The notes: generated by a model from the letters alone, not told the origin. Positions 1,214-63,506 are shown, numbered from the stretch's first letter. The stretch is 64,000 bases of DNA from an uncultured virus (IMG/VR IMGVR_UViG_3300012953_000023) (IMGVR_UViG_3300012953_000023), one strand, 5' to 3'. Numbers and translations are program-made.

Positions 1214-1292
1214 CTTTTTAGTTATATCCTTATAACTCGTCGAAATAAGGGTTTTCCTTATTCTTTTTGGTTATATCCTTATAACTCGTCGA
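1214..1292. repeat. 30-bp direct repeat (1214-1243 / 1263-1292) flanking a hairpin
   Basis: CTTTTT(A/G)GTTATATCCTTATAACTCGTCGA twice; AATAAGG-GTTTT-CCTTATT between. Confidence 0.85.
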
Positions 1293-1854
1293 TATTATGA
1301 AGGACATTTAGGTTATTTACTACCGCTAGGGTTACTATACCATTTGCTATGGTCATTTCTTCTTCAGTAAAGGATGTAAATATTACATTACCCCATGCGA
1401 CCTTAAAAAATACCAATTCGGTTAAATTAGGACTATCTGGCAATAATGGATTAGCCTCCTTTGCCTTTCCAGATTTTACTCCTCTATAAGTAGTCCATAT
1501 ATCAAGTGCATTAATAATATAAAAATATGTTTTTTGATTATCAGTTGGATTAGGGTTAGATAGTAAAAATTGTAACTCGCTCAGATTTACCTTTGACTTG
1601 TATTCTATCGACTTGAGTGAAGCTTCGTTCCGAACATGCTTCAGCAGTGAATTGTGATAACAACACTCGAACCCCATCATAATTGCGCGTTTGGCCTTCG
1701 AGTCGAGCACCCAGGTTGACGGCGTCTCCAATGACGGAATAGTCAAATCGAGATTCTGATCCCATGTTTCCGACGATGCAATCGCCGGTGTTGATACCAA
1801 TACCAACATCAATACGAGGTAACCCTTTTTCTTCAAGTTCTTTAATAAGTTCAT
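1279..1854 (-). CDS. Secreted/membrane protein (DUF5658-like D..TT....G..E.NP motif) overlapping the cyclase 3' end
   Basis: Signal-peptide-like N-terminus; LDIWTT..G..EANP motif; fills otherwise empty 1279-1555. Confidence 0.65.
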   Translation of the reverse strand: MNLLKNLKKKGYLVLMLVLVSTPAIASSETWDQNLDLTIPSLETPSTWVLDSKAKRAIMMGFECCYHNSLLKHVRNEASLKSIEYKSKVNLSELQFLLSNPNPTDNQKTYFYIINALDIWTTYRGVKSGKAKEANPLLPDSPNLTELVFFKVAWGNVIFTSFTEEEMTIANGIVTLAVVNNLNVLHNIDEL

Positions 1855-3388
1855 CTGCTGTCTCTATTATTTCTTCTGCTGCATTTATTGACATGTCAGC
1901 ATGGTTATTACAAGGAAGTGGTGCATTCCAAAAAGCCATTATACAATCGCCCATATATTTGTCTATTGTACCACCGTGTTTTAGTATGACTTTTGTCATT
2001 CGATCTAAATAATTATTTATAATTAAAACCAATCCCTCTGGGTCATTGTTGTTTTTATAATGTTCTGATATTGGAGTAAAGCCTACAATGTCCATAAAGA
2101 GAAATGTCATTTCTTCTCTTTTACCACCAAGCTTTAAAAGCCCTGGATTTTTTTGTAGTAACATTACTTGTCTTGGATCTAAATAAGTCTCAAATTGTTT
2201 CTTAATTTGTTGTCTTAGCATAAACTGTTTATAGAAATTATTAAAGCCCGCTGAGGTGAAGGATATTATATATAATATTAGTTGAAACGAAAGATCGAGG
2301 AGTATACCCCATTCGTACCAGAAGAAATATACAGAAGTTGCAGCAATTGCAACGTTCGAGAAGAAGACAACAAGCGATGCCCAAATCGGTAGATAATATA
2401 CCGTCAGAACCAGTATTAAAGATAAAATCAAACCAGCTAATATCTCCATTGAATCAGCCCATTGCGGACGAGATATAGAAGATCCATCCATTATAGTTTG
2501 TATTACAGAAGCCTGTAACTGATGAGGGTATACTAATCCCATCGGTGTTGATGTTTGTGGAACTATACCAGAAGCTGTAACTCCTACAATAACTGTTTTA
2601 CCATTCAAATTCGGTAATGCATCTACTCCATACACATAACTATCAAACGTAAAATTTGTATTAATCCATATAGATCCATTAGTATCAGTTTTTACTGGTT
2701 CATATGGTGGAATCATTACATCTAATATCCCAAAATCTTCGACATGCATCGTATATGATTTTTTATCTTGGAGTACTCTGATAGTTTCTAATGCAAATGA
2801 TGGATATAATTTATCGTTTACTTGTGATATTAAAGGTATTCTTCTTGTAACATTATCAACTTCTTGAGCTCCATTGATTAATCCTACACCCCAAGCTTCT
2901 GATTCTAACATTGGTATATTAGTTACTAATCCATCGTATTCATATGCATAATTGTATGGATCGCCTATACCTTTTATTGCTGTTCCTACATATGGTGCTT
3001 GATTACTTCTTCCTGCTGAGCTTGCATCCTGTGATAATATGATTCCATTATCTCTAATCCATGATGCAAATATTTCATCACCACCAAATCTATCTGGTTC
3101 TGGAAACATTATAGTAAATCCAATCATACCTGCATTTGCATTACGCAAATCAGATATCATCTGTGCATATGTTTGTCTTGGGAATGGATATTGTCCTAAT
3201 GCTTCTAGGCTATCTTCGCCTATATCAATTAATACAATTTGGTCTGAATGTTTATCAGGTAATGATTGGATATATTGATCAAAGGTATTTAATCTAGTTT
3301 CTTCTAATAACTGAGGATCTTGTACTCTTAAACCAATCAATAAAACAATTATTAATAATGTTGTCCATATTGAAGTAATGTATTTCAT
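1556..3388 (-). CDS. CHASE2-domain class III adenylate cyclase
   Basis: N-terminal TM, CHASE2 motifs (LIDIGE..LGQYPFPR), 3 TMs, catalytic FMDIVGFT, DKYMGD, GDAVNLGARLE. Confidence 0.92.
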   Translation of the reverse strand: MKYITSIWTTLLIIVLLIGLRVQDPQLLEETRLNTFDQYIQSLPDKHSDQIVLIDIGEDSLEALGQYPFPRQTYAQMISDLRNANAGMIGFTIMFPEPDRFGGDEIFASWIRDNGIILSQDASSAGRSNQAPYVGTAIKGIGDPYNYAYEYDGLVTNIPMLESEAWGVGLINGAQEVDNVTRRIPLISQVNDKLYPSFALETIRVLQDKKSYTMHVEDFGILDVMIPPYEPVKTDTNGSIWINTNFTFDSYVYGVDALPNLNGKTVIVGVTASGIVPQTSTPMGLVYPHQLQASVIQTIMDGSSISRPQWADSMEILAGLILSLILVLTVYYLPIWASLVVFFSNVAIAATSVYFFWYEWGILLDLSFQLILYIISFTSAGFNNFYKQFMLRQQIKKQFETYLDPRQVMLLQKNPGLLKLGGKREEMTFLFMDIVGFTPISEHYKNNNDPEGLVLIINNYLDRMTKVILKHGGTIDKYMGDCIMAFWNAPLPCNNHADMSINAAEEIIETADELIKELEEKGLPRIDVGIGINTGDCIVGNMGSESRFDYSVIGDAVNLGARLEGQTRNYDGVRVLLSQFTAEACSERSFTQVDRIQVKGKSERVTIFTI

Positions 3389-3460
3389 GCGTATATATCT
3401 ATTAATAATCCTTTTTTCTGATTGGGATAGCCGTATTTTCTTCTTATATAATATTTTAAA

Positions 3461-3721
3461 TTAGTTAAATTTTTTCTGAAGCCATTTGAATATTGCATAT
3501 ATTGTGAGCCCGTAAAACGCTAAAACACTCATAGGTAAAGCTATGTAAGCTAATTCCCATGGTGAAAGAAATAAAATTTCCCATGTAAAGTTTATTGCCG
3601 CTTCCGCATCACTTGTAGAAGTTGGTGTACCAACCTCATTTACAATATCGAGTTCATATTCAGTTAAAAAGTTTGTCCACTCTTCTTCAGTAAAACATAT
3701 AAGATCTTTTGGACATTCCAT
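3461..3721 (-). CDS. Small membrane protein
   Basis: C-terminal hydrophobic helix; 1 nt from upstream stop. Confidence 0.7.
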   Translation of the reverse strand: MECPKDLICFTEEEWTNFLTEYELDIVNEVGTPTSTSDAEAAINFTWEILFLSPWELAYIALPMSVLAFYGLTIYAIFKWLQKKFN

Positions 3722-3722
3722 A

Positions 3723-4436
3723 TTAATTACCCTGTGTTACACTGATAGAACAACCACCAACCGTTACACAATTTTGTGTAATAGAATATGATTGATCAGT
3801 TTGTCCTTGTTGTATTAAATTTAAAGTTGTTGGTTGTGAGCCATGTAAAGCTATATTAGCAGTATGTTCACCACCGTTTGTTTTTTGCAAAACATCTATA
3901 GTATTACCATCTGATGTTGTGTATAAGTTTAATTCTTTACGGCCATTATTTTTTTGTCTAACCCATATGTCATTATTATCACTAAAAATAAGAGATGTAA
4001 AAATATGTCCAGTAGTATCACCAGCATTCTGCTGATATCCTCTAAAATTATTGCCACCGCCATGTACATCTATTCTTGCATAATGACCACCGCCTTCAGT
4101 ACCATCATATACCCATGTTGTAGAATTCTTATTATTAAGTGAAACACCTTGACCCCATCGTATAGTATTATTACCATCTTCTATGTGCCAAATTTCTAAG
4201 ACATTCTCTGCAGTAGATGTATTTACTTGTTTAAAATCTATAGTAACACTATCCTTTATATAGCACCAATTGTCTTGATAGCATTGAATAGTATTATTAG
4301 CTCCTACTTGTTCTATAGTAAGATTTAAAGCGTCAGATTCTACGTTTTTTAATTCTATTAAATTATCCGCCCTGACGAATGATGATAATAACAGACTGGC
4401 CATCACCAACAATAATGTTATTTTTTCTACCTTCAT
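3723..4436 (-). CDS. Secreted curlin-like beta-repeat protein
   Basis: Signal peptide; Q-x-G-x-x-N type repeats; G/N/Q rich; next to csgG. Confidence 0.65.
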   Translation of the reverse strand: MKVEKITLLLVMASLLLSSFVRADNLIELKNVESDALNLTIEQVGANNTIQCYQDNWCYIKDSVTIDFKQVNTSTAENVLEIWHIEDGNNTIRWGQGVSLNNKNSTTWVYDGTEGGGHYARIDVHGGGNNFRGYQQNAGDTTGHIFTSLIFSDNNDIWVRQKNNGRKELNLYTTSDGNTIDVLQKTNGGEHTANIALHGSQPTTLNLIQQGQTDQSYSITQNCVTVGGCSISVTQGN

Positions 4437-5526
4437 TTTCTGTATCCAAAGTTAAATTGGTTCCTATAGGTATTTTAACCGAAACTACTCCGTTTACTTC
4501 TCTATAGAACCATATTTGACCTGCACCTTGGTCAATTATAGTATTATATTGAGTATCTTTATCGAACCCTGGTGCTATGGTTCCTTGTATATCGCCTGAT
4601 GCACTATCTAGTGCTGACTTACGATTAAAAATACTTACCTTTTCCAATGCCACCAATATGTCTTGTAAAAAGTCGACATCAAGTAAATCCATATCGAGTT
4701 CATTAAACTCTAGATTATCCTCAGCTAAAAAATCATCAGCTAAGTAGTCTGTATCGAGATCAGTGAAATCGAGAATATTGTTATCAGCACTCCCAGTTCC
4801 ATCACTTCTTTCATCTTGTCTTTCTTCAATTTCATTTGGTGGACTCACGATAAACATATTGTCTATCATATTTAAGTTAATATTACTTAATACAACTGGG
4901 TTACTTGGAATAGTGTTAAAACTTGAAACCATCGTTGCTTGATAAGCTTCAGTTAGTGTTACAACACCTCCTTCGTTGGTAACCGTTATTTCACCACTTG
5001 GAGAACAGTCGCCATCAATTGTACATTCAGTTTCAGGTAGAAGTATAACCAAGCTTCTTCCCAATTCATCAACCGAGGTTGTGAAATCTGTGCCTCTTAC
5101 TGCTATAGTTGCAGTCGGAGTTTCTATCTTTATATTTTCTTTAGGTACTAAACCTAATCTTCCTGTAGAAAATCGTGCTGTACCAGCCACGAATTTCATA
5201 GTCATATTCGCATCAGCTTTTTTATTAGGATCGTAATAGTATTCAGTAAGCGTTACTTCAGTATGTTCAGTTAAACGAACAACTGAATCATCTAAAAACT
5301 TTAGTAGCATACGGCCTTTAGCCGTTTCTACATGATCCATTTGCTGTATAGGCAAACCAAGTTCAGTGGTAATACTTTCGCCTGAGCGTGTTATACCACC
5401 ACTGCCCTTATGTTCTTCTATGCCGCCTATATCATCCGCGAAAGAAAGTGTACTAACTAATAAACTAGTCAGTAGTATCTTTTTGGACAATATTAACCAC
5501 AGCGTTTTCGCTATCGAATTCTGCAT
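4363..5526 (-). CDS. FecR-domain periplasmic protein (start uncertain)
   Basis: F.DDSVVRL and TPTATIAVRGTDF FecR signature; signal peptide; acidic linker. Confidence 0.85.
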   Translation of the reverse strand: MQNSIAKTLWLILSKKILLTSLLVSTLSFADDIGGIEEHKGSGGITRSGESITTELGLPIQQMDHVETAKGRMLLKFLDDSVVRLTEHTEVTLTEYYYDPNKKADANMTMKFVAGTARFSTGRLGLVPKENIKIETPTATIAVRGTDFTTSVDELGRSLVILLPETECTIDGDCSPSGEITVTNEGGVVTLTEAYQATMVSSFNTIPSNPVVLSNINLNMIDNMFIVSPPNEIEERQDERSDGTGSADNNILDFTDLDTDYLADDFLAEDNLEFNELDMDLLDVDFLQDILVALEKVSIFNRKSALDSASGDIQGTIAPGFDKDTQYNTIIDQGAGQIWFYREVNGVVSVKIPIGTNLTLDTENEGRKNNIIVGDGQSVIIIIRQGG

Positions 5527-6193
5527 TAATTACTCCATAACAGCTTGTTATGCCTGTTGGGCATGTACCAGATGTCTGAGTGATATCAATATCACCACTA
5601 CTTCCAATCCACTCCATAGTTAGAGATTGATCAGAACCATCTGATTGTGCTGTCATAAAATTATTTGAAGATCCAACAACATCAACGTTCCATGTAACGT
5701 CATCAGCATCAATATTGATATCCCAGACGTTTGAACTACCAGTAATATCTAGATCTAAATCTAATCTTTCAGATGAAGCATTGTAGCCCCAATCTATATC
5801 GAAAGTATTACTATTTCCAGTAATGTCTACATCAACGACTGAAGCATCAGCACTTCCGCCATATCCTACGTTCCAATCCCAGATATTACTATTACCTGTT
5901 AACTTTAAGTCAACGTCAGTATTATCAAATAAAGTTGGTCCGAAGATTTGGTTTAAGTTACCAATCATATCAATGTCCATAGTCACAGTGTTACCAGTTA
6001 AGACCCAATCAGTAGCACAATCGCCACTAGAGATAGATCCACATAACTTATTACCATAACCTACTTGGTCAATAGTTAAGTTTAGTGTATCTCCACTCTG
6101 GTCGAGTAAGATCTTGTTGTCGTTAGCGCCGGCAAAAGCAACTATAGGGCATAACAAAATTGCAAATGCGATATATCTATTTAACATTTTCAT
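5465..6193 (-). CDS. Secreted curlin-like beta-solenoid protein
   Basis: Signal peptide; repeated D.DI.G.SN units; DQ.G..N; directly after csgG. Confidence 0.7.
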   Translation of the reverse strand: MKMLNRYIAFAILLCPIVAFAGANDNKILLDQSGDTLNLTIDQVGYGNKLCGSISSGDCATDWVLTGNTVTMDIDMIGNLNQIFGPTLFDNTDVDLKLTGNSNIWDWNVGYGGSADASVVDVDITGNSNTFDIDWGYNASSERLDLDLDITGSSNVWDINIDADDVTWNVDVVGSSNNFMTAQSDGSDQSLTMEWIGSSGDIDITQTSGTCPTGITSCYGVINAEFDSENAVVNIVQKDTTD

Positions 6194-7087
6194 TTAGTTT
6201 TCCTCGTTTAAAGCGTGTTTATCGTTGCTCCCATCATCCTGATGAGGGTGGCGATGTCCTGCTTTTATTTCCCAAAAGTCTCTGTCATGACCTTGGTATA
6301 TTAGTTCCAACACAGCTGCTTCGATCGTTGATCTAAGCGAGCGTGTCACTGATTCATTTTCAGTTATCCCATCTTCTATTTCTACAAGCTGGGTACTCAT
6401 ATCGACGAATTTAAAAACATCATATCCATTAGCGACAGCCAAAATGGTTTTTGATGTTTGCACATTTAATAAAACTTCACCGGTCAATGTGCTAACCGCT
6501 CTTAAATGTACAGTTACTATATCTCTTCTGTAGGCTCGCGAAGTTCCTACTCCAAGATATCGTGCTCCTGCACCTCCAGTCTCGATGTTGGTGTCAAAAC
6601 CAATGACTCCTCCCTCGAGAATGATTCCAGCAAAAAGTAAAGGAGCTAATCCCGTTTCATCCTCTTTGCCATATTGTTCTCTAGTTGTTCTAACTATTTG
6701 TCGTTCTCTAGTTAAATGATCTAACCCTACTCTTTCAACAACTCTAAACCAACTTCCACCGCCTGCAGTTTTTAAAGCATCTATTAACATTGTAGATGCT
6801 CCTTGTGAAACGGCTGTTGAAAATAAAGCTGAATCTCCTTTTTGTTTTCTTTGTCCTGTTAAATCTGGAAAGTTATACACAGCTACTACAGGTTGTTTTT
6901 CTGGTGCTGGTAATTCTAATAATTCTTTATGTGTTGGTAAATGAACTACTATTGGGCTTTCTCTGCATTCACCATAATATTCCATTAAGCTGTTTTGACA
7001 ACTATCAGTCATACTAGGCATTCCAGCACAACTTGTTAGTACTATTATTGATAATAGTGATATTGCTTTTTTAGCCTGTTCCAGCAC
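6194..7087 (-). CDS. csgG: Curli secretion pore lipoprotein CsgG
   Basis: Lipobox LTSC; VAVYNFPDLTGQRK, STAVSQG, WFRVVERVGLDHLTRERQI, LEGGVIGFDTN. Confidence 0.92.
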   Translation of the reverse strand: MLEQAKKAISLLSIIVLTSCAGMPSMTDSCQNSLMEYYGECRESPIVVHLPTHKELLELPAPEKQPVVAVYNFPDLTGQRKQKGDSALFSTAVSQGASTMLIDALKTAGGGSWFRVVERVGLDHLTRERQIVRTTREQYGKEDETGLAPLLFAGIILEGGVIGFDTNIETGGAGARYLGVGTSRAYRRDIVTVHLRAVSTLTGEVLLNVQTSKTILAVANGYDVFKFVDMSTQLVEIEDGITENESVTRSLRSTIEAAVLELIYQGHDRDFWEIKAGHRHPHQDDGSNDKHALNEEN

Positions 7088-7625
7088 TTCCAGCTCCTAT
7101 AGGAATAACTATTGTAGTTTCAGATCCATCTTCTGCGGTAATTGTCATAATTATAACTTCTTCATCTTGTACACATGCGTATATTGATGCATCACAGGTT
7201 GTTCTTTGATAAGTAATAGTATTACCTTCTAATACGAAACTACCGAAGCTTGATTGTTGACAAGCTGGGTCAGTAACATCACATGAAGAAAATAAACTTT
7301 CTACTAATTGTTTACTAAGCTGTGCATATATTCTACTTTCTAAATTTCTCATAAATTTAGCTAGTGTTGTATTTTCAGCATCTCGCTCAGCTTGTAATAA
7401 AGCAGCTTCAATATCATCTGCAATTGCTTTTTTACGTGAAAATTCTTGGTTTTCTATAGTTAAATAGTGTGATGAAGTCCCTATACCACTAAACGAAGGA
7501 CTTTTAAATTTGTGTACTAATTCATCAGCGTATGCTGATGGTGTTGCTATTAATAATAGTGTAAAATAGAATATAAAATTAATTATTCCGCTTTTCATTT
7601 CTTTTTCCTCGCTTCTTCTTTGCAT
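7071..7625 (-). CDS. csgF: Curli assembly protein CsgF-like (start may be MKSGII)
   Basis: Signal peptide then ELVHKFKSPSFSG; F..NLESRIYAQLS; adjacent to csgG. Confidence 0.8.
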   Translation of the reverse strand: MQRRSEEKEMKSGIINFIFYFTLLLIATPSAYADELVHKFKSPSFSGIGTSSHYLTIENQEFSRKKAIADDIEAALLQAERDAENTTLAKFMRNLESRIYAQLSKQLVESLFSSCDVTDPACQQSSFGSFVLEGNTITYQRTTCDASIYACVQDEEVIIMTITAEDGSETTIVIPIGAGSAGTG

Positions 7626-7851
7626 TTTCTTTATATCTTAAGACTACGTTTACTTTTTGTTGTAATCTTATCATATCCTGATCTAACATCCTAGTTTGAT
7701 CTATAACTCTAATTAAAGCCATGTGCATTTTTTCTAGCTCAGGCTCAATTACAGTGTTTATAAAGTGCCAAATATACCAAATAAAATAACCCATTCCCAC
7801 AGCCATAACAGCTGGGAAACCGTAATCTGATACTAATTGACCTACATCCAT
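7579..7851 (-). CDS. Small membrane protein with coiled coil
   Basis: N-terminal TM (YGFPAVMAVGMGYFIWYIW). Confidence 0.75.
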   Translation of the reverse strand: MDVGQLVSDYGFPAVMAVGMGYFIWYIWHFINTVIEPELEKMHMALIRVIDQTRMLDQDMIRLQQKVNVVLRYKENAKKKRGKRNEKRNN

Positions 7852-8147
7852 TAATCTCTCCTAACATCAAGCTTTCCATCTTCAATGAAATTTTCTGCAC
7901 GAGCTATTCTATCAATATCTGGTGGTAAATCTAATGCACTAGATACTAATAAGTCAATTTTTATAATTTCGTTGCTCATTGTTCTCGCTCTATTCTCCAA
8001 GGATTGGCAAAACATCGTGAGTGTTTTTATTTGGTCTATTATACCAGCAAGGATTTGCTTTATAACAATAAATATAAAAACGCCCATGATGATTGACCCG
8101 GCTATAGGAGCGCCTACATCAGCAATCAACTTAAACACTTCATCCAT
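7851..8147 (-). CDS. Small membrane protein, similar in layout to 7579..7851
   Basis: N-terminal TM (VGAPIAGSIIMGVFIFIVI) plus coiled coil. Confidence 0.75.
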   Translation of the reverse strand: MDEVFKLIADVGAPIAGSIIMGVFIFIVIKQILAGIIDQIKTLTMFCQSLENRARTMSNEIIKIDLLVSSALDLPPDIDRIARAENFIEDGKLDVRRD

Positions 8148-8152
8148 ACGTT

Positions 8153-8160
8153 TATTTATA
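8153..8160 (-). promoter_or_regulatory. T4-type late promoter TATAAATA
   Basis: Exact consensus, intergenic, 5 nt before ATG. Confidence 0.75.
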
Positions 8161-8897: not shown

Positions 8898-9362
8898 TTA
8901 CACTTCCTCGAGCCTCGACATAAGTCTTTCGGCTCTGTTCGTTACTTGTTTGTACCATCTTGAATCTCTGCCTTCTACAGCAGCCTCTTTCCAATCACCA
9001 CATTGCAGCGCTGCGTTGTGCTTTTTAAATTTACTTAAGCGCGTAAGTCCCATATTAAACATCATATTTGCAACAACTTGTTTAACCTCTTGTGGGTAGC
9101 CGTCCCAACCATCATGTAATTTTTTGCAATCACTTATGACTGTCTCTACATCCTTGGCGAAGACTGATATAACTCTATCCTCTGAGACTGCAGTACCCAA
9201 CGCCAACCCGAATTCTGGGTCTCCTTCCAATACCAAGTGTCCAATGCCAAATGTAGCATAGCCAAGGTGATCATGATATATTTCATTTACTTGTCCCTCG
9301 TCTATTATTAATTGTTCTCTTAATTGATCTACATCAATATCTTTATTTTTATTAAAAAACAT
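8898..9362 (-). CDS. T4-type lysozyme (GH24)
   Basis: DEG...IY.D.LGY.T.GIGH; NM.FNMG; SRWY.Q...RA.R. Confidence 0.92.
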   Translation of the reverse strand: MFFNKNKDIDVDQLREQLIIDEGQVNEIYHDHLGYATFGIGHLVLEGDPEFGLALGTAVSEDRVISVFAKDVETVISDCKKLHDGWDGYPQEVKQVVANMMFNMGLTRLSKFKKHNAALQCGDWKEAAVEGRDSRWYKQVTNRAERLMSRLEEV

Positions 9363-28432: not shown

Positions 28433-28781
28433 CGCCTTTTAATCCTAAATCTTTTGCGTACTTGGGTAATCTACAAGACCAATAACCTGGAGAGAGTTTA
28501 TCTGTTTTAGTATCGCAGTTGTGTCGTGATGCAAAATTTCTAGCTGCGTCGCGATCATTAATTTTAGAAGTAAGACCACCCTTTTCGTCTCCAAAGTTTA
28601 TTTTCTTTATATTACCAGTTTTTGGGTTTTTAACATATACAACATATTTTTTAGGACCTGAACTTCTACTTGGCTTATTAAGCTCTGGATCAGGACCTTC
28701 AATCATTGGTTGCTCTAAAGGAACATATTTTCCTTCGTATAAACCAAATCTGTCTTGTGTATGTTCTAAAAAACTATTCAT
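28413..28781 (-). CDS. Conserved hypothetical viral protein
   Basis: KKYVVYV...NFGD, F.SRHNC, GYWSC. Confidence 0.72.
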   Translation of the reverse strand: MNSFLEHTQDRFGLYEGKYVPLEQPMIEGPDPELNKPSRSSGPKKYVVYVKNPKTGNIKKINFGDEKGGLTSKINDRDAARNFASRHNCDTKTDKLSPGYWSCRLPKYAKDLGLKGGGNYFW

Positions 28782-29221
28782 ATTTTTTTAAATGTTCTCA
28801 CTATTTTACTTAAAATCATTTTTATAGCTGTAAAATACGCCCAACCATAACCATAAAATATATGGAATGTATGATTTTTTTCTATTGCAGATTTAGGGCC
28901 AAATTTCTTTGTCCAATTATCTACATATTCTCCTTTATATCTTAATACTGCGTGTGATGTTTTCCATTTACTAGGTCCTACACAACAAATACCAGCTTGG
29001 TGTGTTATTAACATCCACCACATTTTAATATGGCTTTCACCACATAATCGATATAATATAGAAAGTGAATAATCCTCGCAATCGCCTACGTATTTACCTT
29101 CTGCATCTGCAGAATATATTATTTTCCATGCATCGGCCATGCCGTATTGCTCTTTATCTTTTCTGTATTTCCATTTGCTATTAAATGAAGATACAATTTT
29201 ATTTCTAGCCTTTTTATCCAT
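28778..29221 (-). CDS. Transglutaminase-like cysteine protease
   Basis: GDCEDY, HAVL, DN catalytic triad pattern. Confidence 0.7.
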   Translation of the reverse strand: MDKKARNKIVSSFNSKWKYRKDKEQYGMADAWKIIYSADAEGKYVGDCEDYSLSILYRLCGESHIKMWWMLITHQAGICCVGPSKWKTSHAVLRYKGEYVDNWTKKFGPKSAIEKNHTFHIFYGYGWAYFTAIKMILSKIVRTFKKI

Positions 29222-40496: not shown

Positions 40497-40525
40497 ATTA
40501 TACCATACTTTAGTCGTTTTGTACA
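40497..40525 (-). promoter_or_regulatory. Early-type promoter TGTACA-N17-TATAAT
   Basis: Recurrent motif. Confidence 0.75.
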
Positions 40526-41391
40526 TGGTTAAATTGAATATTTTGCTCTTTTTCTCTATCATCTCTTTCATATTGAGATCTATAGTTATTATTTATCTCA
40601 ATAGCTTTATTTAAAAGAGTTAATTCTTTAGAATACTTTGAAAAAGCTAATGTATCTTTAGGGAAACATGCTCCTCCGTATCCTTGCTTTCCATCAAATC
40701 CTGGAACTTTAGTATGTGATGGTGCTATCCTTTCATCAGCTCCAACTGCTTTAATAATTTTATTAAAGTTTACATTACCATGTGATCTACACACATCGTA
40801 TAGCTGATTAAAGAAAGTAACCTTTGTAGCTAGAAATGAGTTAATAGTGTATTTTACAAATGATGCCTCTTCCAAAGTCATATGATACGATGGACACCAA
40901 TTGCATAAACTATATTTATCATAATAGCTTTCTAGCAATTCCGTTTTATCTTCATTGCCACCAAAGATATGAAACTCTGGATTTACAAATTGTTCACAAG
41001 CTGATTTTTCTGTCAAAAATTCTGGATTATATACTACATTACACATTCCAGTATACATTTCTATAACGCTTGGTGTTACTGTAGATTTTATAACAATTAA
41101 AGTTTCTTTATTACAGTTGGATAAAATGTTCATTACTGAATCCAATATGCTAGTATCAATGTCTCCATCATCACCCATTGGTGTAGGAACACATACAAAT
41201 ATTAAATCAGCATTAGAATCAACTAAACTTAAAGTATCTTCATCTGTATGTCCATATTTTGGATCTATAATTTTTTTGTGAACTTTAGTATTTGAAAATC
41301 CATAATCAACTGCTTTTCCTACAAAACCATGTCCTATGATTCCTAATCTTAACCTTCCTTCTAGCTTTCTTGATAATTCTGATATTCTCAT
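40510..41391 (-). CDS. UDP-glucose/GDP-mannose 6-dehydrogenase family
   Basis: GHGFVG, CVPTP, KST, NPEFL, GYGGACFPKD. Confidence 0.9.
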   Translation of the reverse strand: MRISELSRKLEGRLRLGIIGHGFVGKAVDYGFSNTKVHKKIIDPKYGHTDEDTLSLVDSNADLIFVCVPTPMGDDGDIDTSILDSVMNILSNCNKETLIVIKSTVTPSVIEMYTGMCNVVYNPEFLTEKSACEQFVNPEFHIFGGNEDKTELLESYYDKYSLCNWCPSYHMTLEEASFVKYTINSFLATKVTFFNQLYDVCRSHGNVNFNKIIKAVGADERIAPSHTKVPGFDGKQGYGGACFPKDTLAFSKYSKELTLLNKAIEINNNYRSQYERDDREKEQNIQFNHVQND

Positions 41392-42164
41392 TCTGCTTCT
41401 CCATACCAATCCCAACGGCCATGGTCTTCTTCTAATATATGAAACTGTGGATTCCAACCATAGAGTTTTAATACCGTTGGATCAGCACATGTGTGTTCTC
41501 TTTCACCAGTTACTTCTTTAATTGGTAAGTTGTTTTCTGGCCAGATTTTATTTGCCATATCTGCTACATTTACTGGCTTTCCATTACCTACATCAATTGC
41601 TTTAAATTTATTTGACATATCCCAAAAGTTTTCAATACAAATATGTATTGCTGAGCAAACATCTGCAACATGTGTCCAATCTCTAGTGTGATTAGTTAAA
41701 TAAGTTAGTGATGGATCTTTTCTTAATAAAGCGTCATATAACATATCTTTTCTACTATCAGGTCCATAAACAGTATGGAATCTTAATCCAATAGAATTTA
41801 CATCTTTTGCAATATGTTCCATAGCCCATTTAGTAGTTGCGTATGGTGATTGCCACCATTCATATACTGATGACGAAGATGCATATATGATTGGAACATC
41901 TTGTTCTTTACAAGAATCAAAAATGTATTGTGATGCAATAACATTTGTATGCCAATATTCTTCTGGTTCTTCGTGTGATTTACGTACTCCAGCTAATGCT
42001 GCTAAATGTATAACCATATCAAACGGAGATACATCTATATTTTTTGCGTCTCTAATATCACCACTATATTCTGTGATATCATATTTTTGGTGATAGGTAT
42101 CTAGGAAATGATTTGCTATAAAGCCTCTTCTATGTCCTTGGGTACCTGTTAATAAAATTTTCAT
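41388..42164 (-). CDS. NAD-dependent nucleotide-sugar epimerase/dehydratase
   Basis: HLAA.AGVR, ASSSSVY, YATTK, RFHTVYGP, RDWTHV. Confidence 0.9.
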   Translation of the reverse strand: MKILLTGTQGHRRGFIANHFLDTYHQKYDITEYSGDIRDAKNIDVSPFDMVIHLAALAGVRKSHEEPEEYWHTNVIASQYIFDSCKEQDVPIIYASSSSVYEWWQSPYATTKWAMEHIAKDVNSIGLRFHTVYGPDSRKDMLYDALLRKDPSLTYLTNHTRDWTHVADVCSAIHICIENFWDMSNKFKAIDVGNGKPVNVADMANKIWPENNLPIKEVTGEREHTCADPTVLKLYGWNPQFHILEEDHGRWDWYGEAE

Positions 42165-43375
42165 AAAAATGCCTCCAAACTATTTTCATCTCTATCATAA
42201 TCATATTTTCTAGCTAAATTATTTTGGAATAAGTATTTAGTTTCAATTAAATCTCTTCTGTTTTCTAACACTGCTTTTACTTCAGTTGCCATATCTTTAG
42301 CTGTTGCAAATGGAACATTTTGACATATATGATTATAGTTTTTCATAGGATCAATAACTTCTAAATCCCTTGGTAATCCCATAATAGCTTTAGCTTCATC
42401 AATATTTAGATATCTATCTTCAGTTGGATGAGCTACTACTTTAGGTAAATGAACTACAAATGCTCCAATATAATTAACTGGAATAATTGTACCTCTCAAC
42501 ATAATGTTTCCACCTGCTTCTAATTTTGCATGTTTACGTCTCGCCTTTGCAGCTTCTCTTTCAAACTCTGGATATTCATCCATCCATTCTGCAATTGTTC
42601 CATGCTTAATTCCCATTTTCATTAACCTAGATTCAATGGTTACAGATTTTTCTTCGTCCTTTACTGATTGTGAATAATCATAATGTGACATTCCGCCTTT
42701 TACAACCTCTAACATATATTTGTAATAAGGATCATCTTTACTTGGTGTCTTTTTATTTAATACTTCAGTTTGAAAGTTACTTTTTACTCCAAGGATTAAC
42801 TCTTGAATTGTTGGTCTTTCTTTATCAAAATAATTTAGTACAGGAATTCTATTTCCAAAATGTTCTTTATCCCAGAAAAAGAAGAATGTTCTTTTTCGAT
42901 ATTGAGGACTTCCGTGATTTAAACTCTTTGTTAAATAGATCGAGAAGTTGTACCCATTTTCTTGGCCAAGTTGATACAACTTCTCTCTCATGAATGCACC
43001 TATCTTTCCGGCTAGACCTGGTGCATTCTCTCCCCACAGTACTTTTGGTCTAACCTCTTGTAAAACAAATTCAGATGATTTTTCCATCCATTGATTATTT
43101 TGGTTTTCTTCTCCATGCGAATTATGATAAGTACTCAAACCAGCACATGGACATACAGATGACACAACATCAACTTGTTCTAATTTAATGTTAGGTTCTT
43201 CATCTAAAACATGATATGGAATACTTAGCCCTTGTTCATAATAATGCTTAATTAAGTGTTCTTCATTACCCATAAATCCAGAATATGTCATTAGATATTC
43301 TGGTTTTTTTCCATAAGCCTCATCTGAAGCTAATATTTCACCACCGATTAGTGGTACTATTCCTGCATGTTTCAT
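42161..43375 (-). CDS. Divergent C5-cytosine methyltransferase-like protein
   Basis: PCAGLS (IV), ENAPG (VI), PQYRKR (VIII), R.L...E...IMGLP (IX); motif I degenerate. Confidence 0.75.
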   Translation of the reverse strand: MKHAGIVPLIGGEILASDEAYGKKPEYLMTYSGFMGNEEHLIKHYYEQGLSIPYHVLDEEPNIKLEQVDVVSSVCPCAGLSTYHNSHGEENQNNQWMEKSSEFVLQEVRPKVLWGENAPGLAGKIGAFMREKLYQLGQENGYNFSIYLTKSLNHGSPQYRKRTFFFFWDKEHFGNRIPVLNYFDKERPTIQELILGVKSNFQTEVLNKKTPSKDDPYYKYMLEVVKGGMSHYDYSQSVKDEEKSVTIESRLMKMGIKHGTIAEWMDEYPEFEREAAKARRKHAKLEAGGNIMLRGTIIPVNYIGAFVVHLPKVVAHPTEDRYLNIDEAKAIMGLPRDLEVIDPMKNYNHICQNVPFATAKDMATEVKAVLENRRDLIETKYLFQNNLARKYDYDRDENSLEAFL

Positions 43376-44205
43376 CCTAAAAAATCCTCTAATGATGATG
43401 CGTTCTTTGCTTTAATTGCATCCTTATAAGCTTTTGACCATTGAATGAAGCAAGTAACTCGTTCTTCTCCTTTCCATGGTCCATTTGCTAATACTTTAGT
43501 TTTTAACGCTACGTAATCTGGGTACATTTCAGCTAATTGTCTGTGTACTTGATTACTTAATTCAACTGTTCTATATTCTGAACAACCGCCTTTTGCATTA
43601 GTGGCCGATATTGAAACTCTGTATCTCGTTGTAATTCTATTAGCAAATCCTTGTGTTAACAACTGTAGATTGGCATGAAAATCTTGAGAAGTTTGTAACT
43701 TATCCCATACAATATTTCTTGGTAAATTTTTTGAATCAAAGTAACAATTAGTCATAATCCTTACATTGTTTTGATGTGGCCAATATTTTAAATCTGGTAC
43801 TACCCATGATGTTGAAAATCCTCCATGATAAATTTGTTCTTCGTCACACCACTTGTTAAATGTATCAAATGCATCGTCATATTCATCTTCAGTCATATCA
43901 CGAGTTTCCCATTTAGTATCTAGATGCTCTGGTGCTGGCCCTTTGTACTTAAAATATTCCATATCATCATCAAGGACCATATGTCTCGTACCATAAAACT
44001 CATCCCATATCCATTGTCTTGTAGGTGATAACCCTTTAATAGATGCTGGTAATTCGAGAACTTTGTCTCCATATATATCACGCATTTCGTCAACCTCATG
44101 TGGTTGCACAGTAAACTTTACTTTTTGTTTCCATTTATCAGGTAGATTTTCATAAGTTTTTTGTTTATGAGTTCTTCCTAATGTTGGTATAATCAAATGT
44201 TCCAT
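43372..44205 (-). CDS. DNA glycosyltransferase-like (GT-A; TAGT/hmC-glucosyltransferase-like)
   Basis: IPTLGR, VLDDD, QDF..NLQLL..G, GGC. Confidence 0.7.
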   Translation of the reverse strand: MEHLIIPTLGRTHKQKTYENLPDKWKQKVKFTVQPHEVDEMRDIYGDKVLELPASIKGLSPTRQWIWDEFYGTRHMVLDDDMEYFKYKGPAPEHLDTKWETRDMTEDEYDDAFDTFNKWCDEEQIYHGGFSTSWVVPDLKYWPHQNNVRIMTNCYFDSKNLPRNIVWDKLQTSQDFHANLQLLTQGFANRITTRYRVSISATNAKGGCSEYRTVELSNQVHRQLAEMYPDYVALKTKVLANGPWKGEERVTCFIQWSKAYKDAIKAKNASSLEDFLG

Positions 44206-44206
44206 T

Positions 44207-44503
44207 TTATACTCCTGCTAGTGTTCTGGCTAAATTATTAATTAAAAACATTAATCCTACGCCATTTAATAAAATTAATGCTCTATCTTTCCATATTACT
44301 GATACAAGCAGCCATAGGAATATTCCCATTACTGAAAGATATAAATCATATACTTGCATACCTTCAACACCTCTTAATGACATAGCAACTAAAACGAATG
44401 CTGATGCAATCCATTTTAGATACCAGTCTAATGTGTATTTTGGTGTTGCTGATTTAAAAATTCTTTTACTGTTCTTAATTTCCTTTGGATCAAATTCTGT
44501 CAT
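44207..44503 (-). CDS. Small 3-TM membrane protein
   Basis: WYLKW, WKDRALILLN. Confidence 0.72.
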   Translation of the reverse strand: MTEFDPKEIKNSKRIFKSATPKYTLDWYLKWIASAFVLVAMSLRGVEGMQVYDLYLSVMGIFLWLLVSVIWKDRALILLNGVGLMFLINNLARTLAGV

Positions 44504-44927
44504 ATTCTATACCTGCTTCTCTAAAAAGTTCAATTGTATCTGCTCCGCTATCTGCCCATTTTTTTGGTACTGCATCTGCTTTATAAACGACCCTCTTAAC
44601 TCCTACTTGAATTAATCCTTTTGCACATTCGCTACAAACCGGAAGCCCTGAAATATATATAGTAGCTCCTTGCAATGATACTCCATTGTATGTAGCATTG
44701 TAAATACAATTCATTTCTGCATGAACTACGTATTTGTATTTTTTATCTCTATTATAATATCTTTCATCTGTATCAATAATTCCACGAGGAAATCCATTAT
44801 AACCTTGTGCTAGTACTTGGCCCTTTTCTCCGATTGCAACTGCACCAATTTTTGTGCTTGGATCTTTTGACCAAGTAGATACTTCCTGTGCTAAGGAAAT
44901 ATATCTTTTATCCCATTTACTTGACAA
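44490..44927 (-). CDS. cd: dCMP deaminase (likely TTG start)
   Basis: SKDPST.IGA, GYNG, HAEMN, PVCSEC. Confidence 0.92.
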   Translation of the reverse strand: MSSKWDKRYISLAQEVSTWSKDPSTKIGAVAIGEKGQVLAQGYNGFPRGIIDTDERYYNRDKKYKYVVHAEMNCIYNATYNGVSLQGATIYISGLPVCSECAKGLIQVGVKRVVYKADAVPKKWADSGADTIELFREAGIEYDRI

Positions 44928-45603
44928 GATTAAAGTGCCTCTCATACACATGTAGGTTTTGTACTTGCCAATGAATATCACCATGGTTTAGGACAACACC
45001 TTCAAAATATAAATCATCTCTTAGCATATCCATCACATGTTTTTGCCAAGCATAATCATTACGATAACCAAAGATTACGTCATTAGATCGCATTTGTACG
45101 ACTGCATGTAATGCATTATCTCTTATGTAATAGGTTACTGCATTAGTGCAAATAAAGTCGTTTTTACCTTGTTCTTTATATTCAATCCAAATACTTGGTC
45201 TTTGATAAATCATTGATGCTCTACGAGAATCTGGATTTTTTAATAATTCTTTAAGTACTTTATCGTATTGTTTGTGATACTTTTTAGACCAAATTAAATG
45301 ACCATAGTTTGAATTAATTTCACCATGAATATTTGCAGTGTATTGCCAGGCTTGTGGTGGCTCTTTATCACCTTCAGGATAGATATCAGTTATATTAGTT
45401 GATTGACTGGCATACCAGCGTAATTCATCTTCGATATATTCTTGATTAGGTTTACCAAAGATAGCTGGGCCATCTGCATAAAAGTTAGCACCAATCATTT
45501 CAATTGTTTTAGCACCTGTTTTATCAATAGTAAATCTTTCATTACGAAGTTCATTAATAAAATAGCTTTTTACTTGATCAATTTCTAATGCAATACTAGT
45601 CAT
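44917..45603 (-). CDS. 42: dCMP hydroxymethylase-like (T4 gp42 family)
   Basis: NSNYG, DFICTN, MRSNDVIFGYRNDYAWQ (Asp at the dCMP-specificity position), NLHVYERHF. Confidence 0.85.
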   Translation of the reverse strand: MTSIALEIDQVKSYFINELRNERFTIDKTGAKTIEMIGANFYADGPAIFGKPNQEYIEDELRWYASQSTNITDIYPEGDKEPPQAWQYTANIHGEINSNYGHLIWSKKYHKQYDKVLKELLKNPDSRRASMIYQRPSIWIEYKEQGKNDFICTNAVTYYIRDNALHAVVQMRSNDVIFGYRNDYAWQKHVMDMLRDDLYFEGVVLNHGDIHWQVQNLHVYERHFNLVK

Positions 45604-45928
45604 TTTTATTCCTATTAAATGCATCTTTACTTGCGTCTTGGCCAGGGATTCCACCTCTGCAATAAGCAACAAAGAACGATGCATAGTTAATTAAATCTTT
45701 ACCTGAGTCTTCGAGTGATTCAAAGTTTGGTGTGTAATCTTCTGATTGCATTGCTTCCATTACAGACATCATACGCAACATTTTTGCATGCATAATGTCA
45801 TGAATGGTTGTAATACCATTGGGGTAATAATCAGCTTGAGTTATCTTAGAATTTGGGTTCTGATAATCGTTTGATTTTTTAGTTTGTAATTCAGCACACT
45901 CTTGTAATACTTTTAGCGATTCTTTCAT
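45596..45928 (-). CDS. Nucleotide-modification-associated domain protein (Nmad1/DUF1599-like)
   Basis: KKSNDY, K.LR, ESLEDS..DLINYA. Confidence 0.7.
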   Translation of the reverse strand: MKESLKVLQECAELQTKKSNDYQNPNSKITQADYYPNGITTIHDIMHAKMLRMMSVMEAMQSEDYTPNFESLEDSGKDLINYASFFVAYCRGGIPGQDASKDAFNRNKND

Positions 45929-45989: not shown

Positions 45990-46412
45990 TTAGTCTTCTG
46001 GTGTATAAATTATACCTTGCTCATTTAAAACTTGCTTATTCCAAAGATGACCCTTTTCAGTGTCTTCCTTACTTTGTCCAAAATAAGGAACTGCATGGCA
46101 ATCATCTATCATTGTTTGATTTATACTATGGGTTGAATCTCCTAAGAATAACTCTCCCAATATTCTGCCAAATTTTCCTTTATCGTGAGACAAAAGTTGT
46201 ATCTCTTGATCTTTCAATAAGCCTTCAAGATGATACTTTGATTGTTTACCATAAAACTTTTCTTCTAGGTCTCTAGTTCTAGATTCAGGTGTATCAATAC
46301 CCATCATTCTAACTCTTTGTTTTTTGTAAACCATTCCAAAACCTAGATCTATATCTACGTCTACAGTGTCGCCATCTACGACTCGTGTAACTTCTACTTT
46401 ATATCTATACAT
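45990..46412 (-). CDS. Thermonuclease (SNase-like)
   Basis: VVDGDT, R..GIDTPE, GKFGRIL. Confidence 0.88.
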   Translation of the reverse strand: MYRYKVEVTRVVDGDTVDVDIDLGFGMVYKKQRVRMMGIDTPESRTRDLEEKFYGKQSKYHLEGLLKDQEIQLLSHDKGKFGRILGELFLGDSTHSINQTMIDDCHAVPYFGQSKEDTEKGHLWNKQVLNEQGIIYTPED

Positions 46413-46827
46413 AATTGTGTTGTCTATGCTCCTTTTTAGTTTCCCAATCTTCTATTGCTCTTCTTATAGAATCCTCTGCAAGAACAGAACAATGGATTTT
46501 TATTGGTGGCAACTCAAGTGCTTCGGCAATATCTTTGTCCTTTACTTGTTTTGCTTCTTCTATTGTTTTTCCTCTAAGCATTTCAACAAACATTGTAGAT
46601 GATGCGATAGCAGAACCACAACCATAGGTTTTAAATTTTACATCTAAAATTTCTTCAGTTTCTGGATCTAATTTTAAATCTAGTTTCATAACATCACCAC
46701 ATGCTGGTGCACCTGATAGTCCAGTTACAACATTAGGGTCATTAGGATCAAATCTTCCAACGCCGTGTTTTGCTGGATTATTTAAAACTTCTTCGAATCT
46801 ATCTACTACTTTTTTACTGTATGCCAT
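46405..46827 (-). CDS. iscU: Fe-S scaffold IscU
   Basis: GAPACGD, FKTYGCGSAIAS, LPPIKIHCS. Confidence 0.95.
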   Translation of the reverse strand: MAYSKKVVDRFEEVLNNPAKHGVGRFDPNDPNVVTGLSGAPACGDVMKLDLKLDPETEEILDVKFKTYGCGSAIASSTMFVEMLRGKTIEEAKQVKDKDIAEALELPPIKIHCSVLAEDSIRRAIEDWETKKEHRQHNYV

Positions 46828-62945: not shown

Positions 62946-63506
62946 TTACCTCATGAATAGCTCTAATTTTTCACGAGCCTTTTCTTCTTTTGCGAACTTT
63001 TTAATTTTAGTGTCTTTATCTCTTACCTGTGATATTCTTTGTCTCAAGGTATCGACATAAGCCATAGTTTCAGCTGCCATTTCGTTATCCATTCCAGCTT
63101 CTACAAATTCCTCAATGCCCATTTTTTCAATAAATCTAAACTTAATATCTTGTTGTTTCTTTTCCTTAGTGATTCTTCGGATAAAGGCAAAATAGCAAAT
63201 CTGTGTGAAATATGAAAAGGCATTTGGTTTACCAGTTCTTGTTGCAGTTTCAAGATTATAGTTTCCTATAGCCCTTAAGCAATTTTCAACTGCATCCATT
63301 ACCATTTCTTCCCGATAGGTATACCTCACAAAGTTCGGTCTATGAGATAGGCCTTCTGCAATTTTGATAAAACATCTTGCAATGTAATCTGTGACTTTTG
63401 GTATTTCTTTACCTTTGGATTCTGCTTGATTCTTTTCGCTGACATAATCAACAACGGCTAATGAAAATTCTTTGTTGTTAATATAATGTGCTTTATTTTT
63501 ACTCAT
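62946..63506 (-). CDS. 55: Late sigma factor gp55
   Basis: HYINNKEF, IAEGLS.RPNF..Y, NAFSYFTQI.Y.AF.RRI.KEK. Confidence 0.95.
   Translation of the reverse strand: MSKNKAHYINNKEFSLAVVDYVSEKNQAESKGKEIPKVTDYIARCFIKIAEGLSHRPNFVRYTYREEMVMDAVENCLRAIGNYNLETATRTGKPNAFSYFTQICYFAFIRRITKEKKQQDIKFRFIEKMGIEEFVEAGMDNEMAAETMAYVDTLRQRISQVRDKDTKIKKFAKEEKAREKLELFMR

Follow-up and report, generated by a model that had tools for sequence, protein, structure and literature searches.

A complete viral curli secretion cassette in an uncultured T4-like phage, and a possible link from its pore through a FecR/RIN-fold protein to a CHASE2 adenylate cyclase

The stretch of DNA analysed here (the window: 64,000 nt of the uncultured virus IMGVR_UViG_3300012953_000023, whose positions serve as coordinates throughout) carries at its low end a cassette of ten tightly packed minus-strand open reading frames (ORFs), located at 1279-8147. 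This cassette is a real, intact and strongly conserved module, but an already known one: judged from its genes and their order, it reproduces in full the viral type VIII secretion (curli) cassette described in print for SAR11-type T4-like phages. New here are the predicted likeness of its FecR protein to RIN, the setting in adhesin loci of the closest bacterial relatives of its cyclase, and a copy of the whole module in a Henriciella genome. On comparative grounds it is tentatively proposed that the FecR/RIN-fold protein couples the state of the CsgG pore and its fibre to the CHASE2 domain of the cyclase, and thus sets the synthesis of cyclic AMP (cAMP); we consider this possible, if still short of probable.

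In gene order, and with the late-promoter motif at its head, the cassette consists of the following features:

8153-8160, minus strand: T4-type late-promoter motif TATAAATA, 5 nt ahead of the cassette's first ATG
7851-8147, minus strand: small membrane protein 1, 98 amino acids (aa), with an N-terminal transmembrane (TM) segment at residues 19-37 and then a charged helical tail (phrog_18771, E 1e-23)
7579-7851, minus strand: small membrane protein 2, 90 aa, a paralogue of the first (phrog_18771, E 2.5e-25)
7071-7625, minus strand: CsgF-like protein with a signal peptide (PF10614, E 1.9e-9; phrog_35372)
6194-7087, minus strand: CsgG outer-membrane channel lipoprotein with an LTSC lipobox (PF03783, E 1.2e-50)
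5465-6193, minus strand: curlin-like beta-solenoid 1 (curlin-1), 242 aa, with a signal peptide and about eight repeats with G-x-S-N
4363-5526, minus strand: exported protein of predicted FecR/RIN fold, 387 aa (PF04773, E 7.4e-11)
3723-4436, minus strand: curlin-like protein 2 (curlin-2), 237 aa, with a signal peptide, a distant paralogue of curlin-1
3461-3721, minus strand: tail-anchored protein of 86 aa with a C-terminal TM segment at residues 60-78, accessory
1556-3388, minus strand: CHASE2 receptor adenylate cyclase, 610 aa (phrog_35576, E 2.5e-201)
1279-1854, minus strand: overlapping ORF, 191 aa, with a signal-peptide-like N-terminus, in the +1 frame of the 3′ end of the cyclase gene

In detail, csgF and csgG are adjacent and a curlin-like gene comes next, while the FecR gene follows this first curlin and precedes the second curlin and the adenylate cyclase. 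Taken in the same order, the first three junctions overlap by 1, 47 and 17 nt, the fourth is exactly abutting (gap of 0), the next two overlap by 62 and 74 nt, the seventh and eighth leave gaps of 1 and 72 nt, and the last overlaps by 299 nt. A tightly packed minus-strand run with these domains in this order had been described from the sequence in the original prediction. All ten ORFs are present, the ORF map, Pfam and PHROGs agree with the domain calls, and the description is correct.

The phage itself is T4-like, with homologues of the gp55 late sigma factor (62946-63506), gp46/47, gp45, gp44/62, gp43, gp41, UvsX, NrdAB and RegA, and nearly all of these genes lie on the minus strand. The cassette is widespread in ocean viromes, where it gives SAR11-type hosts an envelope machine that they lack: a scan of IMG/VR with a CsgG alignment found a relative in at least 554 viral contigs. 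The best 80 of these were examined, each gene being counted only in the contigs that extend far enough to hold it. Small protein 2 (80/80), small protein 1 (78/78), csgF (80/80), curlin-1 (73/73), FecR (65/65), curlin-2 (56/56) and the cyclase (45/45) were found in every such locus, and the 62- and 74-nt overlaps which join curlin-1, FecR and curlin-2 are conserved. The earlier claim had been made to depend on FecR and cyclase accompanying csgFG in related phages, and so they do throughout this sample. Podovirus-type versions lie outside the sample, because the 80 contigs are by construction the closest relatives.

The pelagiphages HTVC008M and Melnitz show the same gene order as the window, with proteins 35-48% identical, and the cassette genes of Melnitz are already labelled in GenBank. 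These relatives were found by protein searches; a megablast of the cassette against phage records gave nothing. In the available parts of the pelagiphage papers, csgF and csgG with their neighbours are reported from pelagimyophages (PMC7029224), in line with the mention of marine myophages in the original prediction. A SAR11-phage cluster of one or two small "HK" genes, CsgF, CsgG, CsgA/B, FecR, a second CsgA/B and adenylate cyclase is described from both podoviruses and myoviruses (PMC9599517, mSystems 2022), with trees that point to Alphaproteobacteria, matches in metatranscriptomes and presence at all 65 stations examined. The gene linkage across the envelope had been presented as uncharacterised in a phage, and this does not stand, as the full cluster including FecR and cyclase is published there. 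Compared with the systems of these papers (PMC9599517, PMC7029224, PMC9004378), the window has the same genes in the same order and nothing essential differs. The present analysis differs in naming the CHASE2 domain, which the available text of the three papers does not mention, in finding the histidine kinase ("HK") label unsupported, and in one bacterial (Henriciella) type VIII secretion system locus with FecR and cyclase.

The FecR protein is the component on which the proposed coupling depends. It is composed of a signal peptide, a folded domain (residues 31-241), an acidic linker (243-311) and a small beta domain (315-387), and hydropathy indicates no TM helix beyond the cleavable-looking signal peptide. 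The linker measures 66-77 residues in all 30 homologues, is about 30% acidic and carries conserved L-D motifs. In a model built from 30 sequences (predicted local distance difference test, pLDDT, 70.2; predicted template-modelling score, pTM, 0.48; residues 243-311 of low confidence), the folded half resembles both the PupR signalling domain and RIN, the periplasmic plug of type-1-secreted RTX adhesins. Searched with a FecR-family profile, the sequences in the PDB yielded no relative. The double likeness to FecR/PupR and to RIN, as seen in the model, is new here.

The RIN structure 5ix9 is the periplasmic N-terminal domain of the 1.5-MDa RTX adhesin MpIBP, and is proposed to be too large for the TolC-like pore, thereby holding the adhesin on the cell (available part of PMC5550230). 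The phage domain is predicted to share the beta-sandwich fold of this retention module, but it belongs to a stand-alone, Sec-exported protein and not to the N-terminus of a giant adhesin. In contrast to the RIN/LapA systems, its channel would be CsgG and not a TolC-like protein, and its inner-membrane partner the CHASE2 cyclase and not LapD. RTX repeats and type I secretion genes were not found in the cassette by Pfam scans, whereas they are present near related bacterial cyclases. The likeness to the FecR/PupR regulators consists in a periplasmic FecR-type domain. Unlike FecA-FecR and PupB-PupR, the phage protein has neither a TM helix nor a cytoplasmic anti-sigma domain, and no extracytoplasmic function sigma factor or TonB-dependent transducer was found in the cassette with Pfam and PHROGs.

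In the outer-membrane part of the cassette, CsgG matches E. coli CsgG (4uv2) with E 4e-47 over residues 47-275. CsgF scores 38.2 bits against a cut-off of 25.8 for PF10614, with no sequence match to a solved CsgF. As in the E. coli curli system, there are a homologous CsgG, a family match to CsgF and cargo-like proteins of predicted beta-solenoid fold nearest to solved CsgA. Unlike that system, the phage cassette is without CsgE, CsgC and CsgD, and adds a FecR-fold protein and a cyclase. No CsgE-like or CsgD-like family was found in the Pfam and NCBIfam scans of the ten cassette proteins. A pore left ungated by the lack of CsgE could admit nutrients or cofactors during infection, as suggested in PMC7029224 and PMC9599517. 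Such an import channel would leave CsgF, two secreted solenoids, the FecR/RIN-like protein and the cyclase unexplained, and the RIN-like fold suggests a plug instead of an open pore; we hold it to be extremely improbable.

The coupling of the FecR/RIN protein to CHASE2 finds its nearest parallels in bacteria, where FecR adjoining CHASE2 recurs. A search of 201 alphaproteobacterial genomes gave CHASE2 in 91 and FecR in 95. Among the matches listed (150 for CHASE2 and 150 of the 308 for FecR), a listed FecR match lies no more than 5 kb away from 22 of the 150 CHASE2 matches and no more than 1.5 kb away from 15, mostly in the same orientation and immediately upstream, where chance would give less than one such pair (a rough expectation, from 308 matches over about 0.7 Gb). 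A Paceibacterota locus even has overlapping FecR and CHASE2-cyclase genes, and at a Micropepsaceae locus (L004) a FecR relative is found with no CHASE2 neighbour.

Two published cases are comparable. In Burkholderia, the "BiofilmReg" operon encodes a LysM-FecR protein and a CHASE2 kinase, a pair also found in Pseudomonas (PMC5192318). As in the cassette, a secreted FecR-domain protein is there encoded directly before a CHASE2 sensor. On the contrary, its output is a histidine kinase with a response regulator, its FecR protein carries LysM and it has no secretion pore. In Sinorhizobium meliloti, the CHASE2 cyclases CyaD1, CyaD2 and CyaK respond to an outside protein via the outer-membrane protein NsrA (available part of PMC13001267), so that CHASE2 cyclases switched on through an outer-membrane protein are already on record. 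The partner in that pathway is the beta-barrel NsrA and not CsgG, there are no curlins, and the receiver is Clr. The periplasmic FecR-domain protein of this species, SMc02177, is a target gene of Clr/cAMP and was dispensable for signal perception in that study (PMC5498481).

In bacteria, the cyclases most closely related to that of the phage often stand in adhesin loci (80 loci compared, with 32-45% identity and mostly from Alphaproteobacteria). A FecR-type ORF lies within 9 kb in 25 of the 80, and 15 of the 26 such ORFs are frames of at least 870 aa. The large ones that were scanned have an N-terminal FecR domain followed by RTX, cadherin-like, Ig-like or BapA-like repeats, and one of them matches the RIN plug 5ix9 by sequence (E 6.7e-6). 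In several loci, giant RTX proteins with an N-terminal FecR/RIN domain are encoded directly upstream of the cyclase. An HlyD-type fusion protein is found within 9 kb in 33/80; in most of these its gene neighbours that of a type-1 ABC exporter, it often directly adjoins the cyclase gene, and some loci also have a TolC-like protein or a LapG-family (Peptidase_C93) protease. For instance, Afipia birgiae has adhesin, ABC, HlyD and CHASE2 cyclase genes in order on one strand. Neither a FecR-type ORF nor an HlyD-type fusion protein was found in 35/80.

LapD is the inner-membrane c-di-GMP receptor of the LapA/LapG/LapD system. Five of the bacterial loci (L109, L123, L132, L101 and L129) show a Lap-like arrangement with the cyclase in LapD's place: the cyclases stand beside giant RTX/cadherin adhesins with N-terminal FecR/RIN, together with type-1 secretion genes and sometimes a LapG-family protease. 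In the window, an ORF of 147 aa at 28778-29221 (minus strand) matches Peptidase_C93 weakly (E 1e-4; 22.6 bits, where the cut-off is 27) and has a GDCEDY motif in common with a Bradyrhizobium LapG-family protein. It was considered as a LapG-like protease of the cassette and set aside, because it is without a signal peptide and 20 kb away.

The whole module occurs in at least one bacterium. A metagenome-assembled genome (MAG) of Henriciella (L173) carries, arranged as in the phage, csgF, csgG, a curlin-1 relative of 504 aa, FecR and a CHASE2 cyclase, contrary to the statement that FecR and cyclase lie outside bacterial type VIII secretion operons (available part of PMC9599517). The contig is 396 kb long with a GC content of 0.52, and the module lies between TonB-dependent receptor genes and metabolic genes, without the small genes. 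In a tree of 102 rows (FastTree, midpoint root), its cyclase is sister to the 27 phage cyclases with SH-like (Shimodaira-Hasegawa-like) support of 97%. Among 251 genomes of the Henriciella order, its FecR protein matches only itself and one weak match, and in bacteria the curli-FecR-cyclase module is rare.

The 80 closest csgG loci in bacterial genome bins comprise ten phage-like contigs with small genes and 70 others. The former (L167, L172 and others among L166-L175, L193 and L249) carry the phage form of the cassette under the names of Sphingobacteriales, Synechococcus, Saprospirales, Planctomycetaceae and others, one of them (L249) with a GC content of 0.33. They look like phage contigs binned with bacteria. 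On an alphaproteobacterial MAG contig (L250, 8012-10823), three consecutive ORFs, namely a curlin-1 relative, a FecR relative and one of 241 aa, are surrounded by remnants of transposases and integrases, with csgG and cyclase not in view; it may be a decayed or mobile piece of the module.

The receiving end of the proposed path is the cyclase, which has a CHASE2 domain (PF05226, E 2.1e-41, residues 13-327) and a Guanylate_cyc domain (PF00211, E 9.6e-19). By hydropathy the TM segments are at 4-22, 316-334, 335-353 and 362-380, so that CHASE2 (23-315) is predicted to be periplasmic and the class III cyclase domain cytoplasmic. Residues D433, K477, D481, N558 and R562 are invariant in 26 aligned cyclases and D549 is found in at least 90% of them. 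In the Pseudomonas adenylate cyclase CyaB (3r5g), their counterparts in the alignment lie in FSDIRGFT, IDKFVGDC and RMDYTIIGREVNLASRLE, and the guanylate cyclase Cya2 (2w01) has Glu at the position of the phage Lys477. We take D433 and D481 to be the metal aspartates, K477 and D549 the substrate residues, and N558 and R562 the transition-state residues. Both metal aspartates, the ATP-selecting Lys and Asp and the N..AR pair had been recognized from the sequence, and the alignment of the 26 with 3r5g supports all of them; the enzyme of the window looks active.

Intact catalytic residues would also suit a cyclase that acts alone, as an auxiliary gene which reprograms host metabolism or disturbs host nucleotide signalling and adjoins the curli genes merely through joint inheritance. 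The block does look inherited as a unit from a bacterial lineage, the Henriciella cyclase being sister to the phage clade. Nevertheless, the CHASE2 sensor is kept in 26/26 cyclases, with identity down to 39%, which argues for regulated over constitutive synthesis. Moreover, FecR adjoining CHASE2 recurs independently in bacteria, and gene order and overlaps are strictly conserved across phages as diverged as these. A free-acting cyclase is distinctly unlikely in our view.

As to the cargo, curlin-1 and curlin-2 both have G-x-S-N repeats with a period of 23-26 residues. The window proteins stay below the Pfam Curlin_rpt threshold (E 3.2 for curlin-1, no match for curlin-2) and below the curlin thresholds of NCBIfam, whereas the Curlin_rpt gathering score is passed by orthologues, namely both Melnitz proteins and the second HTVC008M protein, which also carries a PA14 domain. 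A curlin-1 profile matches window curlin-2 with E 1.1e-7 (BLASTP between the two, E 4e-4) and ORFs in 19 of the 70 non-phage csgG loci (E up to 1e-3), several of them directly beside csgG or csgF; among PDB sequences it found no relative. The AlphaFold2 model of curlin-1 (33 sequences, pLDDT 84.5) is an all-beta solenoid. With this model Foldseek gave nothing at E up to 1e-3, FapC ranking third and E. coli CsgA 40th; in an exhaustive VIA structure search the best match is solved CsgA, with a Z-score inflated by the repeats. Thus, the expected curlin solenoid is what curlin-1 models as, and two curlin-like proteins, which the Pfam threshold does not support, are supported by the orthologues, the profile and the model of curlin-1. 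On this basis, and with the inflation of Z in mind, both are read as curlin-type.

With CsgG, CsgF and two curlin-type proteins with signal peptides at hand, the making of fibres may be the whole point: curli-like fibres would aggregate hosts ("sibling capture") or shield them against other phages, and FecR and cyclase would only regulate expression or secretion. Fibre production has been proposed before (PMC7029224, PMC9599517), and the podovirus form of the cluster is often without the cyclase (PMC9599517), which means that pore and fibre can work without it. On the other hand, Melnitz infections showed no clumping (PMC9004378). A cAMP signal late in the lytic cycle would also be without an obvious transcriptional target, since no CsgD- or CRP-like gene was found in the cassette or among the scanned ORFs of the window, and in the myovirus-type loci examined the cyclase is never missing (45/45). 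We consider fibres as the sole purpose unlikely, though by no means far-fetched.

The time at which the cassette would act is suggested by its promoter motif. The window contains 14 copies of TATAAATA where 15.9 are expected, so there is no enrichment, and all 14 are on the coding strand. Of 82 related loci, 58 have the motif no more than 80 nt ahead of the first cassette gene (33 of these at a distance of 5-6 nt), and upstream of internal cassette genes it was found in 0-1 of 45-83 loci. A motif 5 nt before the first ATG and rare before the internal genes fits a single late unit with a very short or absent leader, and the cassette is probably transcribed as such. The late-promoter motif, which had been predicted at this place from the sequence, is thus present and positionally conserved.

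According to a published proposal (PMC9004378), the cassette would have a role in lysis timing: CsgG/CsgF would be a gated, secretin- or pinholin-like channel which triggers or times lysis, with cAMP as part of the clock. The late-promoter motif at the head and a lysozyme-domain gene at 8898-9362, about 750 nt upstream of the cassette, are in its favour. A CsgG channel in the outer membrane cannot depolarise the inner membrane, however. Furthermore, the FecR protein and both curlin-like proteins are left without a role, and the Henriciella module lies among ordinary metabolic and transport genes and not among lysis genes. Lysis timing by the pore is very unlikely in our judgement.

Returning to the coupling of pore and fibre state to cAMP, the following sequence of steps is proposed. 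CsgG and CsgF would form an outer-membrane channel in the infected cell, whose likely cargo is the two Sec-exported curlin-type solenoid proteins. The FecR/RIN-like protein would sit under this channel, or be threaded into it or held by it via the acidic linker; for Melnitz, the pore lumen of CsgG/CsgF is predicted to be positively charged (PMC9004378). It would pass on to the periplasmic CHASE2 domain what state the pore or fibre is in. CHASE2 would in turn set the cytoplasmic cAMP synthesis of the inner-membrane cyclase. That the proteins make contact, which way the signal runs and what cAMP does are what we infer, and the comparative evidence makes the pore/fibre-FecR-CHASE2 link more plausible than gene order alone would. 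Signalling across the envelope from an outside event to cAMP, as put forward in the original prediction, is thus a reasonable hypothesis with a comparative argument in its favour.

Several observations weigh against this coupling. At least 128 of the 150 listed CHASE2 matches have no listed FecR neighbour, and FecR is absent within 9 kb in 55 of the 80 closest bacterial cyclase loci. Within the same distance, none of these 80 has a csgG relative (nor one of curlin-1), none of 49 CsgG-family matches in the 201 genomes lies within 50 kb of a listed CHASE2 match, and only 1 of the 70 non-phage csgG loci has FecR and cyclase. The podovirus versions without cyclase point in the same direction. The FecR model is only moderate by its pLDDT and pTM, and among the window ORFs scanned for domains no protein binding cyclic nucleotides was seen. 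Finally, transcription is weakly indicated: parts of csgG, curlin-1, FecR, curlin-2 and csgF are matched at 90-99% identity by contigs of three runs labelled as RNA, two of these runs being only guessed as such, with DNA carry-over possible and strand, start and level unreadable from contigs.

A wider reading would take FecR/RIN plugs with CHASE2 cyclases as a general device that converts the state of a surface fibre into cAMP and is used with two secretion machines. In Alphaproteobacteria, the plug would be the N-terminus of a giant RTX adhesin held in the type-1 pore; in the Henriciella lineage and the marine phages, it would be a separate protein serving the CsgG pore and the curlin fibres. 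With such a device the phage would perceive that its fibre has been put out, is under pull or is touched, by neighbour cells or a second phage, and cAMP would time late events. This generalization is doubtful at present. If true, it would link the regulation of giant RTX adhesins with CHASE2 cyclases, for which few ligands are known; in the literature searched, CHASE2 was not found connected with RTX adhesins or LapG. The FecR/RIN-CHASE2 coupling, if true, is a concrete mechanism testable in E. coli, and if it is wrong, the window is one more copy of a known cassette.

The remaining cassette genes are less uniform. The small genes before csgF are labelled as histidine kinase in PMC9599517, a label which is unsupported, as Pfam, NCBIfam and Atlas revealed no kinase domain. 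Small membrane protein 1 has no Pfam or NCBIfam family, and its nearest named Atlas cluster is YvrJ (0.87, a lead only). Of the two small TM proteins announced from the sequence, the first has its TM segment and the second has no segment above the hydropathy cut-off, yet phrog_18771 is found in both.

The TM protein before the cyclase exists as described, but it is not a general member of the cassette: relatives of the 86-aa protein occur in only 3 (L007, L065 and L079) of the 56 viral loci long enough beyond csgG to include it, and it has no Pfam, PHROGs or NCBIfam family. Similarly, the overlapped secreted protein is present as an ORF with a signal-peptide-like N-terminus, whereas the same frame is open (overlap of 290-340 nt) in only 9 of the 46 loci whose cyclase is complete, the window included, one of them ending at 119 codons. 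Elsewhere the frame closes within 5-49 codons, except for an unrelated 165-codon ORF in two loci (L027 and L031). Its conservation is partly forced by the cyclase motif GSESRFDY, and the C-terminal part beyond the cyclase stop is DUF5658-like (E 2.3e-4, below the gathering score). It looks like a lineage-specific overprinted gene start.

Around the cassette, a HesB/IscA-like Fe-S assembly gene (PF01521; 8178-8495, minus strand) is located directly upstream, in the same position as in many related contigs, and a second Fe-S cluster assembly gene, NifU-like (PF01592), is found at 46405-46827 (minus strand). Downstream of the cassette there is a 22-nt direct repeat at about 1240-1300. Three sigma-70-like promoter matches (TGTACA, 17 nt, TAGAAT, with TG ahead of the second hexamer) lie at 136-164, 673-701 and 1172-1200 on the minus strand, spaced by about 500 nt and each preceding one of the small ORFs that come directly after the cassette; they are probably early or middle promoters of the next units. 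In a more distant part of the window, the run at 40510-45684 (minus strand) holds UDP-glucose dehydrogenase-like, NAD epimerase, C5-cytosine methylase-like and TAGT (TET-associated glycosyltransferase) genes together with DUF6552, dCMP deaminase and thymidylate-synthase-like genes, a composition which suggests hypermodification of the DNA with sugars.

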